This document shows, piece by piece, positions 2,513-63,885 of a DNA stretch of 64,000 nucleotides. Positions within the stretch are counted from its first letter, which is position 1; each line of letters starts with the position of its first letter. The stretch comes from Candidatus Saccharimonadales bacterium (GTDB lineage Bacteria > Patescibacteriota > Saccharimonadia > Saccharimonadales > EFPC-124). Under the pieces are notes generated by a model that ran no database searches, had not been told where the DNA came from, and saw only the letters and a program-made list of their open reading frames with translations. The translations under genes and the position numbers were made by a program. The DNA is taken from the NCBI GenBank assembly GCA_035280845.1, contig DATEFB010000026.1:16055-80054 (forward strand). The letters are read 5' to 3'.

Positions 2513-4009
2513 CTAGAACCGCGCGTTCCAAACGAATGTCGCGGTTGTGGCGCCAGGGTCGGCGTTCACGTTGATCGTAAACTGTGTGGCACCAACGCCA
2601 CTGATCCAGAATTTTGTCGCTGTTCCCATGCTGTTAGTTGGCGTCACGCTAATGTTCGCCAGCGCCGGAGTCGCCGCCAATGTATGCGTCACTGCAATTG
2701 ACGTTGTGCCGTTTGCGACCGTCGCCGCTCCTGTGGCCTCTGTCCGCCAACCCAGGTTATTGCGCAGAATAGTGTTTGTGCCGGCCGATTCTACCAGCGC
2801 AACGGTTGGCGCGGCGTTCTGCACAAGGACGTTATCGACAATAAGGTTATCGCCAGACCCGCCAGTTGCCTCTTCGCGGATAAGGCTGCGTGTTTTACCG
2901 GCGTCACCATCTGTCTGAATATTGTTTCCAGAAATAATGTTATAGTGCGTGCCAAATTCCAGGTGGATAGCCGAGGCAGCCACGTTACCTTGGTCGCCGG
3001 TGCTCGCGAAGAGGTTGTTCGCAACAATGTTACTACTGCCGACAATAAAGATGTTGTCGCCCGCAACGCCATCGAATGTCGAGCCAATAATGCGGGTGTT
3101 GCTTTGGTCCTGAATGCGGATGCCGATACAGTTGTTGCCGCCGCCCACAAAGTTAAGGCTAATAAAATGTTGTAGTCCGGCCTGATCCAATAACGCGACC
3201 GGCCGCGAACCGACCGGGTTGAGTGCGCCACCTAAGTTTTCGAAATCGCAGGCGATCAGCCAGTTTTCGTCGCTGCCGGTCAGCCAGACGCCGCCGCCAA
3301 AACCATCGCTGTTGTTGGAGTTATCGAACAAACAACTCAATACACGGTTATGGTGGCCGTATGCCCCGCCCTGCATTGGCCCCAATTTGAGCCCCCAGTT
3401 GTAGCTGCTGTAACAATGGACGCGCTCAAAACTGCACTGCACGGCGCCGTCGGCCGAGATGCCACCGCCAGCTGTTTGGTTGTCGGCGTTGCCGTCTACG
3501 GCAAAGTCTGCAAAATGCGCACCTGTAACTGGGTTACCTGCACCAGCCGCGAACTTAATGACGTAATCATTCAGTCCGTTAGCCGCTTTTAAGATTGTTT
3601 CTTCGCGGCCCATGCCAATGATCGTAATTGGCCCACTAATAGTCAGTGGTGCGCCGACAATTGCCGTACCCGCCCCAAGTAACAGCGGTTTGTTAGCAGT
3701 GATTGCAGCCGCAATAGCAGCCTGCAGCGCAACAGCGTCGTTGGTAGCGTTATCGAACACGGCACCGTAGTCACGGGCATACACGACGTGCTCATTCTTT
3801 TGGAGCGCATTGTTAAGAGTGGTTTGCAGGCCACTCGTCAGGTCAGTTATAGGGATACCGGCGCCCGGTTTGGTGTAACGCGTCAGGGCTGTATCGATGT
3901 CGGCGCTGCGCTTCAGGGAACCGTCGGTGTTGTGCTCGACATCTAAAAAGGCATTGAGGACGTCGCCCCAAACTCCACTGTCACCCCCAGGTGTTGGTAA
4001 TCGTGCCAT
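2513..4009 (-). CDS. right-handed parallel beta-helix (pectate-lyase-fold) repeat protein, tailspike/glycosidase-like
   Basis: 498 aa with many Gly/Asn-rich ~22-aa turns (NNxFxxxGDxGI-type repeats, e.g. IIGSTFDGVAGDNIFIVGSSNIVANNLF). N-terminal MARLPTPGGDSGVWGDVLN. Fold call is from repeat pattern only. Confidence 0.7.
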   Translation of the reverse strand: MARLPTPGGDSGVWGDVLNAFLDVEHNTDGSLKRSADIDTALTRYTKPGAGIPITDLTSGLQTTLNNALQKNEHVVYARDYGAVFDNATNDAVALQAAIAAAITANKPLLLGAGTAIVGAPLTISGPITIIGMGREETILKAANGLNDYVIKFAAGAGNPVTGAHFADFAVDGNADNQTAGGGISADGAVQCSFERVHCYSSYNWGLKLGPMQGGAYGHHNRVLSCLFDNSNNSDGFGGGVWLTGSDENWLIACDFENLGGALNPVGSRPVALLDQAGLQHFISLNFVGGGNNCIGIRIQDQSNTRIIGSTFDGVAGDNIFIVGSSNIVANNLFASTGDQGNVAASAIHLEFGTHYNIISGNNIQTDGDAGKTRSLIREEATGGSGDNLIVDNVLVQNAAPTVALVESAGTNTILRNNLGWRTEATGAATVANGTTSIAVTHTLAATPALANISVTPTNSMGTATKFWISGVGATQFTINVNADPGATTATFVWNARF

Positions 4010-4061
4010 GCAAACCCCGCTTTATTACTCTTAATCATAGCAAAATGGTTATGCTTAGCAA

Positions 4062-4898
4062 CTACTTGGCGAACCACTGTCGGACAGCAGGCGTAATCGT
4101 CGATGCAATGTGCTTATTGGGGCCCGGTATTACTGCGACCCCCACCCCTTCAAAGACTTTCATGCCAGCCACATCGAAGTTACGGACGATGTAGATTGTT
4201 GCCTGCTCGTATTCCCGTGTCAGCTCGCGCCACACAACAAAACGGTTTAGAAGTTCAAGTTGGCCAGGTTTAAATTGGCGGTCAGTCTCTTCGTGGAGCT
4301 CGCGGATGGCAGCCTGGAGCGAGGTCTCGCCTTCTTCGCAGCCGCCACCAAATGCACCAATCTTGCCGGGCTGGTCGATGCCCGGCTTATCGTCCCGCTG
4401 ATGGCCATACATGGTGCCGTCCGGGCCTATGAAGAGCGTAGCAGCCGAGCGGTGCACCTCTGGATGCTCAGCTGTGGCATTCAGAATATAGTCGCGCTCT
4501 TTAAACCACTTCTCGGCGCCCGGCCGGCAGACTGGTGCCAAAAGCGGATCGTCGAGGCTGCGCACCACATGGTATCCCTGGCCTTCATAGACCTCGAGCC
4601 CCTGCACAGAGACACCTTTGGCGATATAAATAAATTCATGTTCCAGGCGGTCGGCCGACAGGTCAAAATCGTACGTGATCCATTCTTCCAGGTCGGCTTC
4701 GGTTAGGTTGAGGTTGGTTTCTTCGTTAATTTCGCGTACAGCCGCAGCCAATGGTGAGGCGTCTTCGGGCTCCAGTGTGCCGCCAAAAAAACTCGCCAGG
4801 CCGGGGCTGTTAATGCCAGGCTTGTCATCGCGGTGTTGGGTGATCAAGTTGCCTTCGGGGTCAATCAGCAGCACGCCCGCGCAGTTGAATTCAGCCAT
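4062..4898 (-). CDS. tandem double-Nudix hydrolase
   Basis: Two Nudix boxes: GGTLEPEDASPLAAAVREINEETNL and GGGCEEGETSLQAAIRELHEETD. Confidence 0.85.
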   Translation of the reverse strand: MAEFNCAGVLLIDPEGNLITQHRDDKPGINSPGLASFFGGTLEPEDASPLAAAVREINEETNLNLTEADLEEWITYDFDLSADRLEHEFIYIAKGVSVQGLEVYEGQGYHVVRSLDDPLLAPVCRPGAEKWFKERDYILNATAEHPEVHRSAATLFIGPDGTMYGHQRDDKPGIDQPGKIGAFGGGCEEGETSLQAAIRELHEETDRQFKPGQLELLNRFVVWRELTREYEQATIYIVRNFDVAGMKVFEGVGVAVIPGPNKHIASTITPAVRQWFAK

Positions 4899-5442
4899 GT
4901 TGGGCCTCGAGCCATTGCAACAGAATCAGGGCGACGCGCTCTTCGTGCATGTCTCCCTTTACAATCATTTCTTTGGCGGTGGCAAAATCGTACCAACTGA
5001 CGTCGTCGATTTGCTCGCCGTCTTCGAGTGCCTGGTCGCCTGGCTGCCAGTCGGTGGCCGTAAAGACATACAAATCCCACTCTACCGTGGCGCCGAGGGT
5101 GGACTTTTTAAAGAACGTCACTTCTGCCACATGCATGCCAGCTTCTTCGGCGGCTTCGGCCTTCGCCTTGGAGGTAGCGGCATCCAGAATATCTTTGCCA
5201 GAGGTACGGAATGTCTCAAACTCGGCCAGCGTATCGAATACCTTACCACCGGGCAAGCGGAAATCGTGTACGCCTAATTCCTGTCTGAATTCTTTGGTTA
5301 GCAGCACTTTTTTGTTGGGAAGGTCGGCAATGATCAGCCGGACGCCAGGTGCACGGCGGGCGACTTCGAAGACGCGGCCATCTGGCTGGGCCACGTGTAC
5401 CAGCTCGAACAGTTTTCCTGTGGCAAAAATAGACTCATTCAT
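4891..5442 (-). CDS. Nudix hydrolase (ADP-ribose pyrophosphatase-like)
   Basis: PGGKV...AKAEAAEEAG Nudix-box-like segment. 8-nt overlap with the downstream Nudix gene. Confidence 0.75.
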   Translation of the reverse strand: MNESIFATGKLFELVHVAQPDGRVFEVARRAPGVRLIIADLPNKKVLLTKEFRQELGVHDFRLPGGKVFDTLAEFETFRTSGKDILDAATSKAKAEAAEEAGMHVAEVTFFKKSTLGATVEWDLYVFTATDWQPGDQALEDGEQIDDVSWYDFATAKEMIVKGDMHEERVALILLQWLEAQHG

Positions 5443-5483
5443 AAAAAAAGTATAGCACCGACAGGGGTGGTTTTTACTCTGCC

Positions 5484-8027
5484 ATGATACAATTGGTCTT
5501 TATGTCAACTGGAGAGATGGAAGATATTATTTTGGAACCCGGCTACCAACGGGTTGAGCACGTCGACGAAGAACCGTCGCACGCCCTGTTTGCGGCCTGG
5601 CAAAACAGCTCGGTCAACCAGGCAAACGCCCGCGAGGACCGCGAATTCCAGCGCACCGTACTCCGCGACGTCGTTGAAAGCGCCGCCCAATCGCAGGGCG
5701 ACCCCGCGCGCCGCGCCATAATCCGGGCGTACGGCGACATTACCGCCTATTTCTGGTTCGGGAACGACCACACGCCACTCCCCCGCGGCCTAAAGCGCTA
5801 TCTGCTGCCCGACGAAGACACGCCCATGCTCACCCTCGATTACAACCACGCCGACCACCAGGACATGCACAATGTCGCGGCCATGCTTGGCCCGCTCGGC
5901 CTTGGGGAGCTGCTGGCATACCGCCGTGAACTGTTTAATGAGCAAAGCCCTCACCTCTTTGAACCACTGGTCGAGGCGCTTGTCTCGAACACGCCCGGCT
6001 ACCGTTTGCTGGAGAGCTTTAACCTGGACCGCTACACCTGGAACGAGCGGCCGTTAACGCCCGTTGAACGCCTACTCGAGGAACAGGCCGCCGAAGATTC
6101 AGTCCGGCGGCGCCACGGCGTACCCGCCGGACAAGACCTGCGCACCCATACCGCCGCGCGGGCCGACCTGACGCGGGCTGTCCTGCGTCTTGATGAAACC
6201 ACCCGCTACGACCGCCATGCCATCCCCGAAACAGATTCGCCAGCAACCCGCGCGATCAAATTCTTTAAAGGATTGGCTGCTGACGAACTTGGCAGCTCTG
6301 TGCGCGGCACCGAGATCCGCTCTATAAAAACGGTGCATTACAACATGCCCGCCGACCCGCCACCAACTGGCGACCGCCGCCCGCTCCTCCCCCAAAAAGA
6401 GCAGGGTGCATACAGCGTTATCCGGATCGTCACCGACGCCGAAACAGTCAACCACTCCACCGAATCGTTCATAACCTGGGCCCAATCGATGGATTATTTG
6501 AGCTCGCCCGGCCAGGCCCGGCTGCGAGGCATTTCGACGTTCCTGGTTACCGACGCGCTCACAGCCCTCCTCGACGAAGAAGGCGCCGACATTAACTACA
6601 GCGAGCTTCTGGAAGAATTACTTGCCCGCTATACCGGCAGCCTGGCTGAATCCTACCGCGATTTTGTCAGCGCCAACATAGCCAGCCGGCAATTTGGCAC
6701 GCTGGCAACGCTTCTGGCTATGCCGAGCGAATTCGATGAAGAACTGGATTCGTTCATCCTTGCCTACGACAAACGACAGGGCTTTGAGCCACTCCGCGCC
6801 CTGTCGCGCCGTGAGTACAAACGCGGCATGCGTGAATCGCTGGGCAGCATTAAAAAACGGCCCGTCGATGATACCAACCAGCGCATCATCCAGTACCACG
6901 ACGCCGATCCCGAACTGGGCGGGTTCGATGAAGACGAGGCCGACCTTATTTTGAAGCTCAAAGCAATCGGCGACGGGCTCTTCCCCACCATCCCCGGCTA
7001 CCAACCGCTTGGGCTGGACGCCGAACGCAAGCTGTTCGCCCTGCGCTACACGCCCGAGGCCGACCCCTACACCGAATGCTCCACCATTATTCCCGACCAA
7101 GCCCGGCTGGCGCTCGCCCAAACCTACGCCGATGTTGGCCTGCATGAACTGGCTATGCTCGTGCACGGCACTCCAAACCTGACTGTCAGCCAGCTAACGC
7201 GCGACATCAGCCGTACCAACCGCTACATCTTGCCGCGCGATGCCTTTATGCCAGAATTCCCCGCCAACCTTGCAGATTACGCCGGACAAATTGGAGCCGA
7301 CGGTCGGCTGCACATGCAGTGCGTGGGGTCATCGCACTTTTTGTACCTGTCGCTTAAAGAGGCGTTCGGCACCGAGGCCGTGAGCATCATTAACGGCGAT
7401 GCCCTGCCAAGCATTGGCCGCCGCCTGCCCGGGGTCGGGCACCAGCAAACACCGTTTACAGATCCCGAAACAAACCAGCTCTATATTTTAGATGCCACGT
7501 CGCGCGGGGTCAGTACGATCGAAGTCCGAAACGCCGTCTCGGGCTATACAGACGCCCTTCGGCGTTTGGTTGGCCTGCATGTCCTGAAGCAGCTTATCCG
7601 GCCGCGTACAGCCCCAGAAGCGCCTAAGCGCCCACGTTTTGAATCCACGGAGGACCGGACTGTTGCCAGCCCCGAGGCACATCGTCAGGTGCTCCTTGAA
7701 CAAAACCGCGACACGCTGATTATGCAGCTGCGTATGGTGTACGGCACCGATGGCCGCCCTATGCGCCACGACGACCTGCTAGAGCAGACCGCCGGGCTTC
7801 ACACCGACGACATTGTATTCCGCACGCTCAGTACCGCTATTCTGGCGGCGGGCGGCCAGGCCGAACCCGAAGATCCGGCGCGGATCATGCGCTACATCCA
7901 AGCCCTCCAGGACTGCGACGACCGTTCCCTGCTGCGCAAGGTCGACCCCTTTGAATACACCCGCCAGCCGCGCCTGCTGCACGCGCTCGAAAAAGCGCTG
8001 GCCGAGATAGCCCGGCTTAGTCGTTAA
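5484..8027 (+). CDS. large hypothetical protein (847 aa) with possible C-terminal transglutaminase-like Cys-His-Asp core
   Basis: Long uninterrupted ORF at about 58% GC. Cys613 (7320-7322), His653 (7440-7442) and Asp670 (7491-7493) have the spacing seen in transglutaminase-fold cysteine proteases. Start codon uncertain (ATG at 5484, 5502 or 5517). Confidence 0.7.
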   Translation: MIQLVFMSTGEMEDIILEPGYQRVEHVDEEPSHALFAAWQNSSVNQANAREDREFQRTVLRDVVESAAQSQGDPARRAIIRAYGDITAYFWFGNDHTPLPRGLKRYLLPDEDTPMLTLDYNHADHQDMHNVAAMLGPLGLGELLAYRRELFNEQSPHLFEPLVEALVSNTPGYRLLESFNLDRYTWNERPLTPVERLLEEQAAEDSVRRRHGVPAGQDLRTHTAARADLTRAVLRLDETTRYDRHAIPETDSPATRAIKFFKGLAADELGSSVRGTEIRSIKTVHYNMPADPPPTGDRRPLLPQKEQGAYSVIRIVTDAETVNHSTESFITWAQSMDYLSSPGQARLRGISTFLVTDALTALLDEEGADINYSELLEELLARYTGSLAESYRDFVSANIASRQFGTLATLLAMPSEFDEELDSFILAYDKRQGFEPLRALSRREYKRGMRESLGSIKKRPVDDTNQRIIQYHDADPELGGFDEDEADLILKLKAIGDGLFPTIPGYQPLGLDAERKLFALRYTPEADPYTECSTIIPDQARLALAQTYADVGLHELAMLVHGTPNLTVSQLTRDISRTNRYILPRDAFMPEFPANLADYAGQIGADGRLHMQCVGSSHFLYLSLKEAFGTEAVSIINGDALPSIGRRLPGVGHQQTPFTDPETNQLYILDATSRGVSTIEVRNAVSGYTDALRRLVGLHVLKQLIRPRTAPEAPKRPRFESTEDRTVASPEAHRQVLLEQNRDTLIMQLRMVYGTDGRPMRHDDLLEQTAGLHTDDIVFRTLSTAILAAGGQAEPEDPARIMRYIQALQDCDDRSLLRKVDPFEYTRQPRLLHALEKALAEIARLSR

Positions 8028-28451: not shown

Positions 28452-30125
28452 TTACAGGCGAACGGGCGCCGGGATGTTCATGATGTCGAGGCCGTCCTTA
28501 AGCACGTCGGCGTACAGCTGTACAAGAAGCTGGCGAGTCGGCTGGCGGTCACTGCCAACCACACGGTTGTGTTCATAAAAACGGTTGAACGTCTGGGCGA
28601 GCTCGTACAGGTACGTGCAAATATGATGCGGCATCATTTCGGTCACAGCCTTGCCAATGACCTCTGGATATTCGCTGATTTTGCGTGCCAGGCTGCGTTC
28701 GTCGCTTTCGAGGCTGCCGTCAAAGGCTGCCTCGGCATCCGCAGCTTTTTGCAGAATGCTGCAGGCGCGGGCGTGGGCGTACTGCAAATACGGGCCGCTG
28801 TTGCCTTCCATCGCGACCGATTCTTTGGGACTGTAAATGATGTCGCCGCCGATTCGCTGCTTTAAAAATGCGTATTTTACTGCGGCGTATGCGGTCTCTT
28901 TTGAACCTTCTGCCACTGCTGCCTCGGCTGCTTGCAGAATGTCATTGCCGTACAATACATTACCTTTGCGCGAACTCATTTTTACACCACCCTCCAGCTT
29001 AACCATGCCGTGGGTCAGATGGGTAGTGCGTGGGGGCAACTCGGGCTGGAACTGCTCAATGCTTTTGAGCACGACTTTCATGTATTCAATAATGTCGTTG
29101 CCAGTAATAATAACCGACTGGTCAAAGTGGTAGTCGCGCCATTTTGCCATAATCAGGCCAACGTCTTTCGCCTCGTAGGTGGGCAAACCCTGGCTGTTTA
29201 TAAACACGCGGGTGTGCAGGCCATGCGCTTCGCCATCAAAGACAATGGCGCCGTCGCTCTCTTTGTATACGTCCTTTTTCAGCTGCTCGCGAACGGTGTC
29301 GATGCCAAGCTGCACTGTTGAGCTTTCGGGATAATACTTCTCGAACGGATCCACGCCAAGCTCAGTATAAAACCAATCAAAATAGTCGTAACTCCACTGG
29401 CGGCACTCCCAGTAAATCTTGGCGAAGGTACTGTCGTGGTCGTCCTGGGCGTGCACATCGTACACTTTTTTGTTCACTTCTACGATCTGGGCTTTGGCAG
29501 CTTCGTCTTCGTAAGCAGTATTGCCCTTCACGTATTGGTCGGCCATCCAGGTGGCGCGTTCGTGCAACGATGCATCCTTCTTTGACTGCACTGTCTGCCA
29601 GGCCGATTCTTCGTCGTCGCCAATAATTGCCCACATGGCCTTGCCAACGTGCAGCCCAACGTCACCGCCAAAGTTAACGCGGTGCACTTCGCCACCAGCG
29701 GTTTGGATCAGCTTAGAAATGGCATCGCCTATAATGGTGGTATACAGGTGGCCGGCGTGCAACGCCTTAAATGGGTTCGGGTCGGAATATTCGGCCACGA
29801 CAACCTTGCCCTTGTAGGTTTGCGGCTTCACTTCGGGGGCATGGGCAGCAGCGGCCATAATCACGTGGTCGTGCAAGGCAACGTTAATGAAACCGGGCCC
29901 GGCAATAGTAATACTGTCGGCGTAGTCTTTTAATTCGGGCTCCAGCGCAGCTACCAGCTCTTCGGCGATCTGGCGCGGCGGCCTGTTCAATACACTCGCC
30001 AATTGCATGGCGACGTTGGTCGAGTAGTCGCCGAATTGTTCATCGGGACGGGTCAGCTCTGGGGTAATATCCTGGCTGAATACTTTTTGTATAACGCGTC
30101 GTAATGTATTTTGAATGGTTTCCAT
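28452..30125 (-). CDS. argS: arginine--tRNA ligase
   Basis: ORF 28452-30185 trimmed to METIQNTL (ATG at 30123-30125). HIGH-type HAGH. Anticodon-binding C-terminus. Confidence 0.92.
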
Positions 30126-30174
30126 AATCACAGTTATTGTAGCATGCCTCTGGTAGAAGGATCTCATGCAGGCA

Positions 30175-30252
30175 AAACCCAGCATTCCCCGTCTCAGAAA
30201 CGTCCTCGCCTGGCGGCTGCGGATTGTTTCTTCATCAGGGAATGCTGGGTTT
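30175..30252. repeat. nested-hairpin element, copy 1 of 2 (candidate structured RNA or recombination site)
   Basis: 15-bp perfect outer stem AAACCCAGCATTCCC/GGGAATGCTGGGTTT encloses a 48-nt core. The core shares GTCCTCG...CTGCGGA(A)T..GTTT with the core at 63270-63317. Confidence 0.55.
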
Positions 30253-30262
30253 CTTGGCTAGA

Positions 30263-31861
30263 TTACGCAGCAGCCGCTTTAATCAACCCATCAAACAACG
30301 GGTGCGGACGGTTCGGCCGTGACTTCAATTCCGGGTGAGCCTGCGTACCAATAAAGTACGGGTGGTCAACGTGTTCAATCATCTCTACCAGTGTGCCATC
30401 CGGCGACTTGCCACTCAACTTCAGCCCGGCCTTCTGATAGTATTTGTCGTATTTCTGGTTCACCTCGTAACGGTGGCGATGGCGTTCGTCTATCTGGTGT
30501 GCGCCATACACCCGCTCCGCCAGACTACCCTTCTCGAGCACACACGGGTACGAGCCCAGGCGCATTGTGCCGCCGGTCGCCTCTTTGCCTTTTTGGTCAT
30601 TCATAATGTAAATCACTGGGTGCTTGGCGTCTGGCTTTACTTCGGAACTGATTGCGTCGTGCAGCCCGGCATTCCGTGCCGCGCCAATGACCGCCATCTG
30701 CATACCCAGGCAAATGCCCAGGTACGGCACTTTGTTGGCCATAGCATATTGGGCCGAGGCAATCATGCCCTCCAGGCCGCGCGAGCCAAACCCGCCAGGC
30801 ACAATCAGGCCATCGTACGCCGAGAGGACTGCCTCAGCGCCTTTCTCTTCGACTTCTTCGGCGTTCACCCAGTCAAAATCAAGGTTTACTTTGTTGGCCC
30901 AGGCTGCACTGCGCAGCGCCTCGATCACCGAGATGTACGTGTCTTCGTTGTCCAGATACTTGGCAACGACACCAATCTTTACCGTTTGGTCGTATGTAGT
31001 TGTGGCTGCCTTTAAGACGTCGCGCCATTTTTTAAGGTCAGGGGTGTGGTCGGCAACACCCAACCTCTTAAGCAGGATTGAACCGGCCTTGTGCTCCCAC
31101 AACGTGAGCGGCACCTGGTACACGGTGCGGGCGTTTGGCAGCATAATTACCGCTTCTGGAGGCACGCCGCCGAATAAACTGATCTTGGCTGCGGCACTGT
31201 GCGGCGGTTGACTCTCGGCACGGACCAAGACAAGATCAGGAATGATCCCGACACTGCGCAGATCACGGAGTGCGTTCTGCACCGGCTTTGATTTAAACTC
31301 CTTGCTTGTCCCCAAAAATGGCATGTACACCACGTGGGCAAACGCGCACCGGCCCGGGAACTTTACAGCCATCTCACGGATCGCTTCCAAAAAGGCGGTG
31401 GCTTCAATGTCGCCCACCGTCCCACCGATTTCGACAATATGAATGTCGCTCCCCTGCCCCGCGGCAATAATATCTTCCTGAATTGTGTTGGTAAAATGCG
31501 GCACCATCTGCACGGTCTTGCCCAAAAACTTTCCGGCGCGCTCATCTTCGATCATCTTTAAAAAGAGTCTGCCGCTCATAGTAGAACTCCGCTGTGTCAT
31601 GTTGACGTCCAGGAAGCGTTCGTAGTGACCAAGGTCCAAATCGGTCTCGGCGCCGTCATCTGTTACGAAGCACTCTCCATGTTCAGCCGGATTGAGCGTC
31701 CCGGCATCGACGTTCAAATAAACGTCGAGCTTCTGCATACTTACCTTTAAACCCCGGGCTTGTAAAACGGCGCCCAATGACGCCGCTGTGATGCCTTTTC
31801 CAAGTCCAGAGATGACCCCTCCGGTCACAAAAACATAGTTGGTCGTGTGTGTGTTCCCCAT
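30263..31861 (-). CDS. pyrG: CTP synthase
   Basis: ORF 30263-31924 trimmed to MGNTHTTNYVFVTGGVISGLGKG (alternative MPMGN start at 31867). Glutamine amidotransferase GICLGMQ. Confidence 0.95.
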   Translation of the reverse strand: MGNTHTTNYVFVTGGVISGLGKGITAASLGAVLQARGLKVSMQKLDVYLNVDAGTLNPAEHGECFVTDDGAETDLDLGHYERFLDVNMTQRSSTMSGRLFLKMIEDERAGKFLGKTVQMVPHFTNTIQEDIIAAGQGSDIHIVEIGGTVGDIEATAFLEAIREMAVKFPGRCAFAHVVYMPFLGTSKEFKSKPVQNALRDLRSVGIIPDLVLVRAESQPPHSAAAKISLFGGVPPEAVIMLPNARTVYQVPLTLWEHKAGSILLKRLGVADHTPDLKKWRDVLKAATTTYDQTVKIGVVAKYLDNEDTYISVIEALRSAAWANKVNLDFDWVNAEEVEEKGAEAVLSAYDGLIVPGGFGSRGLEGMIASAQYAMANKVPYLGICLGMQMAVIGAARNAGLHDAISSEVKPDAKHPVIYIMNDQKGKEATGGTMRLGSYPCVLEKGSLAERVYGAHQIDERHRHRYEVNQKYDKYYQKAGLKLSGKSPDGTLVEMIEHVDHPYFIGTQAHPELKSRPNRPHPLFDGLIKAAAA

Positions 31862-32070
31862 AGGCATGGAGTATATCGTAGAGGCATATGCCGTGCAATC
31901 TGAAATTTTGCTATGGATAAGCAAGTTTTCGTGCTATGGTTAACCAATTTAATTGAAAACGCTTATGCTACCCCTGTGACACACACCCGACACCTTGGAC
32001 GAACAGAAAAGTACGTGCCGCAAATTCCACATCAAAGTCGCAAAATCCAACGTTTTTACGACGCCCGCCC

Positions 32071-36088: not shown

Positions 36089-36180
36089 TGGCGGAGAGAG
36101 AGGGATTCGAACCCTCGGTACGAGTTGCCCCGCACACACGCTTTCCAAGCGTGCGCCTTCAACCGCTCGGCCATCTCTCC
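36089..36180 (-). tRNA. tRNA-Ser (anticodon GGA), CCA encoded
   Basis: Hand-folded cloverleaf. Acceptor GGAGAGA/TCTCTCC, anticodon stem CACGC/GCGTG with loop TTGGAAA, long variable arm, T-arm GAGGG-TTCGAAT-CCCTC, discriminator G plus CCA. Confidence 0.93.
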
Positions 36181-37000: not shown

Positions 37001-37036
37001 GCGCGGCGGTCGGGACTGTCCCACCGACCGCCGCGC
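37001..37036 (+). terminator. GC-rich hairpin after HGC-7
   Basis: GCGCGGCGGTCGG (37001-37013) pairs with CCGACCGCCGCGC (37024-37036), 13 bp perfect. Confidence 0.65.
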
Positions 37037-48065: not shown

Positions 48066-48101
48066 CCCTGCCCGGTGCCCAAACAAGGGCACCGGGCAGG
48101 G
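48066..48101 (-). terminator. GC-rich hairpin after the HGC-11 operon
   Basis: CCCTGCCCGGTGCCC (48066-48080) pairs with GGGCACCGGGCAGGG (48087-48101), 15 bp perfect with a 6-nt loop. Lies 8 nt beyond the TGA. Confidence 0.7.
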
Positions 48102-62832: not shown

Positions 62833-63228
62833 TTAAAACGCAAGCTTTTTAGCGATCTCTGCCAAGGCGGTGTGGTCGGGATCGGATTCCGTGTCTTGCT
62901 CGGCGAACCAATCTTTGCCGCTCCTGCAAGGGAAGACCTGCACATGGGCATGCGGCACATCAAAGCCGATTATCTTAACACAAGCTCGGTACTCGCGGCC
63001 ATACACCTCTACAATGCGGCGCATGACTTTGCGCACCGACTGCATAAGCGCTGCGTAATCGTCGTCGGCCAGGTCTTCGACACGATTCACCTGCACCTTA
63101 GGCACAACCAGGGTGTGCCCAGGCCGGACAGGATGGATATCGAGGAAGGCGAGCGTTTTTTCATCTTCATACACTTTGTGGCTGGGGAGTTCGCCACGAA
63201 TGATACGGGTATATATTGATGGTTCCAT
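62833..63228 (-). CDS. HIT-family (histidine triad) nucleotide hydrolase
   Basis: ORF trimmed to MEPSIYTRIIRGELP (ATG at 63226-63228). Histidine triad PHAHVQVFP. Confidence 0.88.
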   Translation of the reverse strand: MEPSIYTRIIRGELPSHKVYEDEKTLAFLDIHPVRPGHTLVVPKVQVNRVEDLADDDYAALMQSVRKVMRRIVEVYGREYRACVKIIGFDVPHAHVQVFPCRSGKDWFAEQDTESDPDHTALAEIAKKLAF

Positions 63229-63251: not shown

Positions 63252-63335
63252 GTGATGTGCACTGAGCGCCCTGCTCACTAGTCCTCGGCACGGAGTGCCT
63301 GCGGAATCGTTTACAGCGCGCTCAGTGCACATCAC
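63252..63335. repeat. nested-hairpin element, copy 2 of 2
   Basis: 18-bp perfect outer stem GTGATGTGCACTGAGCGC/GCGCTCAGTGCACATCAC encloses a 48-nt core. Inner hairpin GGCAC-GGA-GTGCC. Core is homologous to 30190-30237. Confidence 0.55.
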
Positions 63336-63340
63336 TTAAC

Positions 63341-63369
63341 TTGACAAGCATAAGCATTTTTAGTATGGT
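63341..63369 (+). promoter_or_regulatory. sigma-70-type promoter giving a leaderless transcript
   Basis: TTGACA (63341-63346), a 17-nt spacer, then TATGGT (63364-63369). The ATG of the next ORF starts 7 nt after the -10 box and has no SD. Confidence 0.5.
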
Positions 63370-63375
63370 ATTTGT

Positions 63376-63885
63376 ATGATCCCTGGCGCAAGCTCGTACC
63401 ATTCATACACCAATTTCCGGCCACAAACACCTCGACCATTCGTCGCCAATACCTTTGGCAGTCGGGCGTTTCACCCAGAAATACATGCCGCCCAGTTCCA
63501 CGCCAACTTGCCCGCTCAACACACTTACGACCGTCCGGTACAGCAGCCCGCCGCCCTCAACCACTACGTACCAGATGCAACCATTAAAACAATTGGCGAT
63601 AGTCGCAGCGTAGGCATGAACACCCAGCTTAAGCCTGGCACAGTTGTAGAGGTGAACCGTCCCGGCCACCAGACCGAATATGCCTATGCCAACTACGGTG
63701 GACACCTGTCGCCGCTCACCCAAAGCACGCTCAACCATGTACCGAACGAAATCCGCGACCAGGTAAAACGCCTGGGCGGACCCTCTTATTTCGCCCATGA
63801 CCTGCATAATAAGTTCTCGACAACCGGATTTATGTCGCAGTTCAACGCCAATAACTTTCATGGGCCGAACAAGCCGCTCATTTAG
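63376..63885 (+). CDS. hypothetical protein (169 aa, His/Asn/Pro-rich)
   Basis: Uninterrupted ORF. No family recognised. Confidence 0.5.
   Translation: MIPGASSYHSYTNFRPQTPRPFVANTFGSRAFHPEIHAAQFHANLPAQHTYDRPVQQPAALNHYVPDATIKTIGDSRSVGMNTQLKPGTVVEVNRPGHQTEYAYANYGGHLSPLTQSTLNHVPNEIRDQVKRLGGPSYFAHDLHNKFSTTGFMSQFNANNFHGPNKPLI

Follow-up and report, generated by a model that had tools for sequence, protein, structure and literature searches.

A conserved hairpin core with locus-specific outer stems in two Saccharimonadales intergenic elements defines a widespread bacterial family

Two intergenic hairpins in a 64,000-nt stretch of a Candidatus Saccharimonadales bacterium (GenBank assembly GCA_035280845.1, contig DATEFB010000026.1, positions 16,055 to 80,054 of the forward strand), called the window here, are real members of a widespread family that has no match in Rfam 15. 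The two copies are element 1 (30175-30252) and element 2 (63252-63335). The conserved unit is an asymmetric hairpin core of about 35-50 nt at the tip of a long outer stem. The family consensus is (N)UCA-x-GUCCUCG-[variable hairpin]-CUGCGGA-y-UUCG. The family is likely to have arisen as mobile or selfish DNA. Our best explanation, offered tentatively, is a small, non-coding, non-autonomous palindrome-nucleating insertion whose core would promote fold-back copying of adjacent DNA.

Element 1 is closed by perfect 15-nt arms (30175-30189 and 30238-30252) and element 2 by perfect 18-nt arms (63252-63269 and 63318-63335). The arms of the two elements are unrelated in sequence, and each pair encloses 48 nt. 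Read along the + strand, each core has CTCA, GTCCTCG, a short hairpin, CTGCGGA and GTTT, and TCC pairs with GGA across a TC/TGC internal loop. The apical helices differ, with GCC-TGGC-GGC in element 1 and GGCAC-GGA-GTGCC in element 2. The nested stems, the 48-nt cores, the + strand orientation and the shared words had all been described in a first-pass annotation of the sequence, and coordinates and pattern match confirm them. The equal core length is a coincidence, as core lengths in the family run from about 33 to more than 90 nt.

The following parts are distinguished. P1 is the variable outer stem, typically 15-25 bp and reaching at least 90 bp with large internal loops in G+C-rich copies. 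J1 is a 2 × 2 internal loop, UC/UC, closed by a C-G pair. P2 is an irregular helix (AC..UCC / GGA..GU), J2 is the internal loop UC / UGC and P3 is an apical hairpin of free sequence, 5 to more than 50 nt in length. J1, P2, J2 and P3 make up the conserved core. P2 exists in two subtypes, a (ACUAGUCC / GGAAUCGU) and b (AACGUCC / GGAUUGUU). Element 2 has the common subtype a (CTCACTAG...GGAATCGTT), and element 1 has subtype b with an AAC/GTT-type P2, like the copies at loci L144 and L211 and those of Collinsella. The parts of the two window elements are listed below.

30175..30189, + strand: element 1, P1 arm on the CTCA side, AAACCCAGCATTCCC; 15-bp perfect complement of 30238-30252
30190..30237, + strand: element 1, core of 48 nt with CTCA at 30193-30196; from pattern match, folds and covariance model
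30196-30201 with 30226-30231, and 30203-30205 with 30221-30223, + strand: element 1, P2; AGAAAC with GTTTCT, TCC with GGA
30206-30207 versus 30218-30220, + strand: element 1, J2; TC versus TGC
30208-30217, + strand: element 1, P3; GCC-TGGC-GGC
30238..30252, + strand: element 1, P1 arm on the TTCG side, GGGAATGCTGGGTTT; 10 nt short of the pyrG stop codon (30263-30265)
63252..63269, + strand: element 2, P1 arm on the CTCA side, GTGATGTGCACTGAGCGC; 18-bp perfect complement of 63318-63335, 23 nt from the ATG of the HIT-family gene
63270..63317, + strand: element 2, core of 48 nt with CTCA at 63274-63277; from pattern match, folds and covariance model
63277-63278 with 63309-63310, and 63282-63284 with 63303-63305, + strand: element 2, P2; AC with GT, TCC with GGA
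63285-63286 versus 63300-63302, + strand: element 2, J2; TC versus TGC
63287-63299, + strand: element 2, P3; GGCAC-GGA-GTGCC
63318..63335, + strand: element 2, P1 arm on the TTCG side, GCGCTCAGTGCACATCAC; ends 5 nt ahead of the TTGACA of a promoter-like site

The pattern GTCCTCG-N6-20-CTGCGGA matches twice in the window, compared with 0.02 matches in shuffled sequence, and the folding z-scores of the two elements against shuffles lie between -5.2 and -8.9 on either strand, as RNA or as DNA. The window corresponds to positions 16055-80054 of a 92,943-bp ENA metagenome contig (ERZ27257114, k141_2610388), and its argS and HIT homologues place it in Candidatus Saccharimonadales (TM7/CPR). An inverted-repeat search and the covariance model find only these two copies in about 83 kb of the contig. 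The description of a two-copy element holds within that range and fails beyond it, the family having many copies in other genomes. Three other short inverted repeats are seen in the window, at 48066-48101 (15 bp with a 6-nt loop), 37001-37036 (13 bp with a 10-nt loop) and 428-469 (19 nt at 89% complementarity); the core is in none of them.

An alignment of 39 copies has 88.4% of its cells paired, compared with 61.5% after shuffling and no more than 52% in the controls with slid partners, and a covariation score of 0.655 versus 0.164. At pair 18-53 of P2, 30 copies have C-G, 5 have U-A and 3 have A-U. The covariance model built on this alignment, R1, gives 105 matches in 92 loci with scores up to 77 bits. 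Fifteen distinct copies that it finds violate the scan pattern described below, and in 4 copies found only by R1 pair 17-54 of P2 is changed from A-U to G-C. GUCCUC and UGCGG are still essentially invariant once R1 relaxes the ascertainment. Element 1 scores 36.4 bits (E=2.9e-8) and element 2 scores 67.2 bits (E=3.6e-18); both are in the R1 seed alignment, so that these scores show consistency and are not an independent test. Both window elements have the arrangement by which R1 defines the family, P1-J1-P2-J2-P3 with GUCCUC / UGCGG. The nested structure is real. A selected structure with helices that vary yet stay paired around conserved internal loops had been proposed from the two copies alone, and the pairing and covariation of the alignment support it. 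The covariance search that had been recommended as a check recovers further copies, some of them outside the scan pattern; copies are many, pairing is kept through two-sided changes, and no Rfam family or insertion sequence (IS) end matches.

G+C-rich copies, which come from Spirochaetes and from metagenome contigs without assignment, form rods of 190-240 nt and have another conserved internal loop, GGGG-UCC... / ...CCCC, some 26 nt below the core. It is a hint that the conserved structure of these lineages is larger, at about 110 nt. The GGGG/CCCC helix carries a UCC, CC or UCCCA bulge on the CTCA-side strand only and at a fixed distance from the core (loci L249, L250, L261, L265, L271, L292, L284, L294, L274 and L166).

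We scanned 185,579 species-representative genomes with the strict 21.5-base pattern CTCA-N2-6-GTCCTCG-N5-20-CTGCGGAWTNNTT, which gives at least 119 matches compared with about 11 calculated by chance. Matches at L130, L145 and L181 look like chance matches; the remaining listed ones share a locus-specific long stem around the core. A related pattern finds 60 loci in a metagenome collection (scan complete). The patterns of both scans were derived from the two window copies, and the listing from the genome scan is dominated by Collinsella. Over the genome and metagenome scans, more than 170 loci across phyla have the same nested architecture. Among the matches listed are about 85 species-level genomes of Collinsella, all at one orthologous locus, together with Clostridia and Bacillota metagenome-assembled genomes (MAGs), Spirochaetaceae, Treponematales, Fibrobacter, Wallbacteria, Krumholzibacteriia, Bianqueaceae, Anaerovoracaceae and four other Saccharibacteria. 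The most copies seen in any single genome is at least 5, in one Clostridia MAG, and a Treponematales genome has at least 4 copies of one 190-nt version. An earlier loose 14-base pattern gave chance matches only, in viral contigs. An impression that copies lie at contig ends was an artefact of the 8-kb locus blocks.

At gathering thresholds Rfam 15 has no match to the element in the window or in 15 element-bearing loci, which agrees with the first-pass view that it falls in no known RNA family. In E-value mode element 2 and the copy at L265 give just generic miRNA-precursor hairpins far below threshold. Literature searches with sequence words and concept terms found no description of the motif, nor did the sections of PMC11109978, PMC8632094 and PMC5737381 reached by term searches. 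It could be argued that the elements are ordinary terminators or chance palindromes that share a few words, given that those of the window are simple long intergenic hairpins and that Rfam sees in them only a generic likeness to miRNA precursors. Such a reading is extremely improbable: the shared pattern is expected 0.02 times per window, the same architecture is found at more than 170 loci across phyla, R1 scores reach 77 bits and the window copies have no terminator signature. Chance or a simple terminator is excluded.

The genes just upstream of the copies are ordinary ones, such as those for phosphoglucomutase, FabF, AspRS, IPMDH, the RNR small subunit, NusA, ClpB, PurF, FBA, AraA/AraD, ABC and MFS transporters and GH116, and pyrG in the window. 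No protein family recurs near the copies, and a conserved partner gene adjoining the element was sought and not found. Of 61 distinct copies, 19 have a gene 3' end directed at them from the CTCA side alone and 5 from the TTCG side alone; 8 are faced by gene 3' ends on both sides and 29 on neither. The stem often starts 0-40 nt past a stop codon. Two or three tandem, co-oriented copies stand behind one GH116 gene in Fibrobacter, and opposite-orientation pairs within about 1 kb have their CTCA sides outward in nine cases out of nine. Loci with such CTCA-outward neighbours are L238, L285, L274, L294, L261, L270, L242, L230 and L312. Several copies are upstream of genes in anti-orientation. The location upstream of minus-strand starts, to which the first-pass annotation drew attention, is incidental; the usual place is just past a stop codon, with the CTCA side facing the gene.

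One alternative is that the element is a cis-acting structured RNA at mRNA 3' ends. The hairpin would be transcribed as a whole together with the upstream gene, the long stem would end or protect the transcript, the tip (J1-P2-J2) would bind a protein or ligand conserved across phyla, and the outer stems would be kept by selection on RNA pairing. We consider this possible but doubtful. The start of copies 0-40 nt past stop codons, their co-orientation with genes (19 versus 5) and the tandem Fibrobacter copies behind a GH116 gene are as expected for such an RNA, and RNAs that bind proteins typically conserve nucleotides on the two strands of an irregular helix, as here. However, each window copy lies either antisense to the predicted transcripts or outside them, several further copies lie upstream of genes in anti-orientation, and no gene class is associated. 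No U-tract follows the stem and the tails have no +/- asymmetry: T-runs outside the stem and strand asymmetry are absent across the family, and A- or T-runs, where present, are paired inside P1.

The CTCA-side arm of the outer stem overlaps the end of an upstream co-oriented open reading frame (ORF) in 12 copies and the other arm overlaps an ORF end in 2, counts that may include spurious ORFs, the ORF calls in G+C-rich contigs being crude. At L242 the two arms align over 78 nt, with full identity in the inner 25 nt and 64% identity further out, and the aligned stretch takes in the last 56 nt of an M14 peptidase gene. L143 and L142 are similar, with the end of a phosphoglucomutase gene. A coding end cannot be shaped to match the DNA downstream of it, and therefore the TTCG-side arm must be an inverted copy of the flank. 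The outer arms, at least in part and in some copies, appear to be copied from neighbouring DNA, and in copies where this can be traced it is the reason why unrelated long stems surround one core. An arm-identity gradient computed by global alignment had an inflated control identity, and the result is not used.

P1 mismatches over 2,076 aligned positions comprise 52 of G.U type on the + strand, 76 of G.U type on the - strand and 139 others. The mix fits random decay of a DNA palindrome and not RNA-filtered substitution. The absence of G.U enrichment on one strand speaks against a 3'-end RNA, and coding-copy arms, like the variation between 0, 1 and 2 copies described next, require a process at the DNA level in any case. 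The apparent covariation of the outer stem between the two window copies had been taken for a sign of selection. It is not compensatory evolution: each copy has arms of its own, and the mismatches look like neutral decay.

The element is gained and lost among close relatives. In L124 and L128, with about 80% ArgRS identity to the window genome, the pyrG-argS spacer is 37-46 nt and has no element. In other relatives with about 80% ArgRS identity, a 412-aa ORF without Pfam match lies on the opposite strand between pyrG and argS (L125 8726-9964 (-), also L126 and L127), at the exact spot of element 1; it may be an unrelated insertion there. Conserved blocks (TTGTCAAG ... TCTATGGCATACTAAG) delimit the HIT spacer, and the TTGTCAAG block, at the promoter-like site of the window, is conserved in L309, L310 and L312. 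The two closest relatives (91-95% identity, JGI 3300078620) stand outside this comparison. The copies in this spacer are as follows.

Window: HIT identity 100%, 1 copy in the HIT spacer
L309: HIT identity 84%, 0 copies
L310: HIT identity 82%, 0 copies
L311: HIT identity 87%, 0 copies
L312 / L313: HIT identity 84%, 2 copies with CTCA sides outward

Element 2 has the position and orientation of one of these two copies, L312-B, yet its arms are unrelated to those of L312-B, although identity in the flanks is about 90%. Along its CTCA-side arm L312-B is collinear with L309, which is empty at this place (TGATGCAC...CAGG.TATGG).

We propose the following course for the palindrome-nucleating insertion, in conditional terms throughout. 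The CTCA-side arm would be resident DNA, which may include the last codons of the upstream gene, and the TTCG-side arm would be copied. A strand with its 3' end just past the strongly folding core could snap back on itself, and with its own upstream flank as the template, fold-back or template-switch synthesis could then lengthen it to give a perfect outer stem. The stem would later decay from the outside inwards. Copies would persist at places where constrained sequence adjoins the CTCA side and the copied arm is directed toward free intergenic DNA, and this survival rule would be the reason why the CTCA side is found toward stop codons and why neighbouring pairs have their CTCA sides outward. 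The invariant GUCCUC / UGCGG would be read by some protein or factor. A more specific form of the idea, to which we give rather little weight, is a new class of self-palindromising mobile sequence, a 'hairpin cap' of about 40 nt present in at least 7 bacterial phyla without terminal repeats and without an adjacent enzyme. It would make a long stem for itself wherever it arrives, by fold-back copying of the flank, gene ends included. In that form, the invariant loops might be read, on RNA or single-stranded DNA (ssDNA), by a factor conserved across phyla.

In Collinsella the element is fixed directly behind the pyruvate formate-lyase gene, and the first Collinsella element is far better conserved than the spacer downstream. 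In 33 distinct orthologues sense-strand G.U states are frequent and A.C states rare. Pair 13-142 is GU in 17 and GC in 15, and pair 38-121 is UG in 25, UA in 6 and CG in 2. One compensatory change, from A-U to G-C, is found. This strong conservation, with sense G.U intermediates and a compensatory change, favours a 3'-end RNA, and comparison of the orthologous sequences suggests that the Collinsella element may be used secondarily as a sense-strand 3'-end RNA hairpin. A second, divergent Collinsella element is located about 173 nt downstream of the conserved one (L135 ~3330-3470 (-), and the equivalent place elsewhere). GTCCTCG and CTGCGGAATGTTT are present in it but CTCA is missing; its P3 measures 50 nt, and it is far more variable between species than the first. 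The pyruvate formate-lyase gene itself is split in Collinsella aerofaciens (L135 ~3639-5990 (-)): one ORF has 683 aa, and the glycyl-radical C-terminus has its own ORF of 84-100 aa.

Gene-orientation bias and the Collinsella G.U states favour the sense (+) strand. The opposite strand folds slightly better in most copies. On the opposite strand J1 reads as tandem G.A, and the commonest P3 loops, C-UUC-G and C-UGC-G, become C-GAA-G and C-GCA-G. Such loops are exceptionally stable as DNA, as in d(GCGAAGC).

Several of these observations weigh against a palindrome-nucleating insertion. The evidence on the strand is mixed as to whether RNA or ssDNA is the active form. The core is near-identical across phyla and is conserved in the roughly 85 species-level Collinsella genomes among the matches listed, and a functional RNA accounts for this no less well than a selfish element does; the scan patterns, for their part, impose some of the invariance of CTCA, GTCCTCG and CTGCGGA. 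At element 2, two empty relatives each resemble a different arm, so that a weak palindrome may already have existed at the target before insertion. Nothing in the empty sites corresponds to the arms of L312-A, so that the flank-copy rule is not proven for every copy, and the crude ORF calls blur the overlap counts. Neither an enzyme, an autonomous parent element, a target-site duplication nor a defined insertion junction was found to account for the arrival of the core at new sites.

The same structural features may be read as those of a recombination or transposition site in ssDNA, with the folded core recognised by a tyrosine recombinase or HUH transposase encoded elsewhere and the long arms aiding hairpin extrusion. 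By analogy with attC, with repetitive extragenic palindromic (REP) sequences and REPINs with their RAYT, and with IS200/IS605 ends, this could account for the gain and loss of the element and its multiple copies in some genomes, for a structure that is conserved, as in attC, while the sequence of P1 and P3 is free, and for an attC-like place behind ORFs with orientation bias. The opposite-strand C-GNA-G loops and the tandem G.A of J1 (Y-GA-R context) would be very stable in ssDNA. We nevertheless think it unlikely. No recombinase, transposase or integron integrase recurs near the copies, R''/R' boxes and cassette arrays are absent and the neighbours are core housekeeping genes. The conserved part is at the tip, whereas attC, REP and IS ends conserve the base or the arms, and the Collinsella wobble states favour the sense and not the antisense strand. 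The IMG/VR virus collection gives 0 strict-pattern matches and a BLAST search of PLSDB plasmids gives chance-level partial matches only, on which a phage or plasmid origin was also rejected.

Comparison with known systems places the family close to several and inside none. REP, BIME and REPIN sequences, mobilised by RAYT, are likewise short non-coding intergenic palindromes, often behind genes and transcribed with the upstream gene, and are multi-copy, gained and lost, non-autonomous long hairpins. A REP is defined by an arm with a GTAG/GTGG head, a cognate RAYT gene and tens to hundreds of copies. Its arms are conserved and define the family and its centre is free, whereas here the centre is conserved and the arms are locus-unique; REP families are specific to a species or genus, whereas this core is near-identical across phyla. 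Near the copies we find no RAYT and no recurrent neighbour protein, and the arms are unrelated between copies and have no GTAG head.

Transposable elements of the miniature inverted-repeat kind (MITEs; Correia/NEMIS, RUP, BOX, ERIC) are also small, non-coding, dispersed, polymorphic for presence, hairpin-folding and open to co-transcription. To them belong terminal inverted repeats common to all copies, together with target-site duplications and a kindred IS that carries a transposase; none of these was seen in the loci compared here. The outer ends are locus-unique with only the centre shared, and no direct repeats were noticed at the HIT-locus junctions. Copy number per genome also appears low by comparison (2 in about 83 kb, at least 5 as the most seen). 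The first-pass contrast with MITEs was still too strong, in view of presence and absence in relatives, near-identical long copies and flank-like stems.

For attC sites the likeness lies in a hairpin of 60-140 nt defined by structure, with free stem and tip sequence, conserved extrahelical positions and a fixed orientation behind an ORF. In an attC the conserved R''/R' boxes (AAC/GTT) form the base, pairing goes no further, and the sites stand in cassette arrays beside intI, while here the conserved part is apical, pairing extends far outward and the neighbours are housekeeping genes. The attC boxes (R'' RYYYAAC / R' GTTRRRY) are not found; AAC/GTT occurs only in subtype b, flanked by further long stem. 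The neighbours include NusA, ClpB, PurF and AspRS, and there are no ORF-site arrays. The IS200/IS605 ends and PATE have two subterminal hairpins with TnpA/TnpB, and this element is a single continuous nested hairpin near which no transposase recurs. An rve transposase at L292 is an inconsistent partner, within a 5.7-kb tandem repeat. This repeat, at L292 1-14676 and L306 (JGI contig Ga0209723_1003303), is a 5,702-bp unit in three tandem copies that holds an eCIS_core/DUF4157 protein, an 813-aa protein of no named family and the rve-type transposase; there is one long-rod copy of the element per unit, divergent in the third.

Quasipalindromes made by template switching or fold-back duplication, an established mutational mechanism, and duplex copies of imperfect hairpin ends, as at poxvirus concatemer junctions, have an imperfect central hairpin and perfect inverted copies of adjacent DNA, with one arm resident and the other copied, as proposed here. 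They are sporadic or viral replication intermediates, and here the same nucleating core is found at many loci and phyla. The HMP-PP thiS and guanidine-IV mepA riboswitches (PMC8632094) and the HRC-8-4 motif are terminator stems with conserved tips. The likeness of the HMP-PP and guanidine-IV aptamers is limited to the conserved tip. Such stems occur in the 5' untranslated regions of one gene class, with a U-tract, as ON switches, and the present family stands behind unrelated genes, has no consistent U-tract and occurs also outside transcripts. A 5'-untranslated-region riboswitch or cis-regulator does not fit copies that lie mostly downstream of unrelated genes with no recurrent gene family. 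The form of an intrinsic terminator (G+C-rich stem of about 5-14 bp, loop of 3-8 nt, T/U tract immediately behind) is found neither in the window nor in the family, and a canonical bidirectional terminator was rejected on the lack of a T-tract outside the stem.

Other identities were tried and rejected. Element 1 antisense has words like CUGAUGA...GAAAC, and hammerhead, hairpin, twister and pistol ribozymes were ruled out by the single coaxial rod, the lack of a three-way junction, missing key core nucleotides and the lack of an Rfam match. Mimicry of 23S rRNA (1100-1135) was considered for CUCACUGGUC in E. coli 23S, but copies align no better to it than to shuffled rRNA, and R1 finds nothing in the rrn operon. 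SRP (signal recognition particle), 6S and Y RNAs are long rods with conserved tips; the element is multi-copy, behind genes and has no Rfam match. A sigma-54 promoter has the wrong GG/GC spacing. For an antisense kink-turn or sarcin-ricin motif the tandem G.A is present but, by reasoning only, the 3-nt bulge and the bulged G are missing. A Tn3-type inverted repeat (GGGG...GGAAAA...CTCACTAAG, L265) fails as 'TAAG' is not conserved and pairing continues past GGGG. A full-length element with a gene in place of P3 was also rejected: no split version, with a gene between the core halves, is found in 2.4 Mb of element loci.

The genes around the window copies are listed below.

28452..30125, - strand: argS, with its ATG at 30125, 49 nt from element 1
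30263..31924, - strand: pyrG (CTP synthase), with its stop codon at 30263-30265, 10 nt from element 1; from the ORF list, and synteny and Pfam in relatives
62833..63228, - strand: HIT-family gene, with its ATG at 63228, 23 nt from element 2
63341..63369, + strand: promoter-like TTGACA-17-TATGGT, for the ORF 63376-63885

The distances to the argS ATG, the HIT ATG and the pyrG stop codon are as first reported. Element 1 is in the spacer of pyrG and argS and antisense to both, and element 2 is between the divergent starts of HIT and ORF 63376, outside both predicted transcripts. Neither has a terminator-like site. The window copies belong to minority context classes of the family, and both look like passengers. 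TACAAT lies 6-7 nt ahead of the argS ATG and is conserved in the relative L124. The -10-like hexamers of the window are only 6-7 nt ahead of the start codons (30126-30145 and 63341-63375), which suggests leaderless or very short-leader mRNAs in this Saccharimonadales genome. An 89-nt tRNA gene at 36092-36180 (-) is the sole Rfam match in the window (60.6 bits).

If the proposed reading is true, a widespread conserved non-coding element would join the short list of structured motifs that cross phyla. Its hosts are gut, rumen, termite-gut, bioreactor and soil bacteria, including Saccharibacteria of the candidate phyla radiation (CPR). Its architecture is the reverse of that of REP, MITE and attC, with the centre conserved and the arms derived from the host. 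It would be a natural and recurrent bacterial example of fold-back inverted duplication, with gene 3' ends among the sequences that can be copied, and would open a mutational mechanism to direct test. From the invariance of the GUCCUC/UGCGG loops a binding partner is predicted, and the long hairpins directly behind many housekeeping genes may affect transcript 3' ends.

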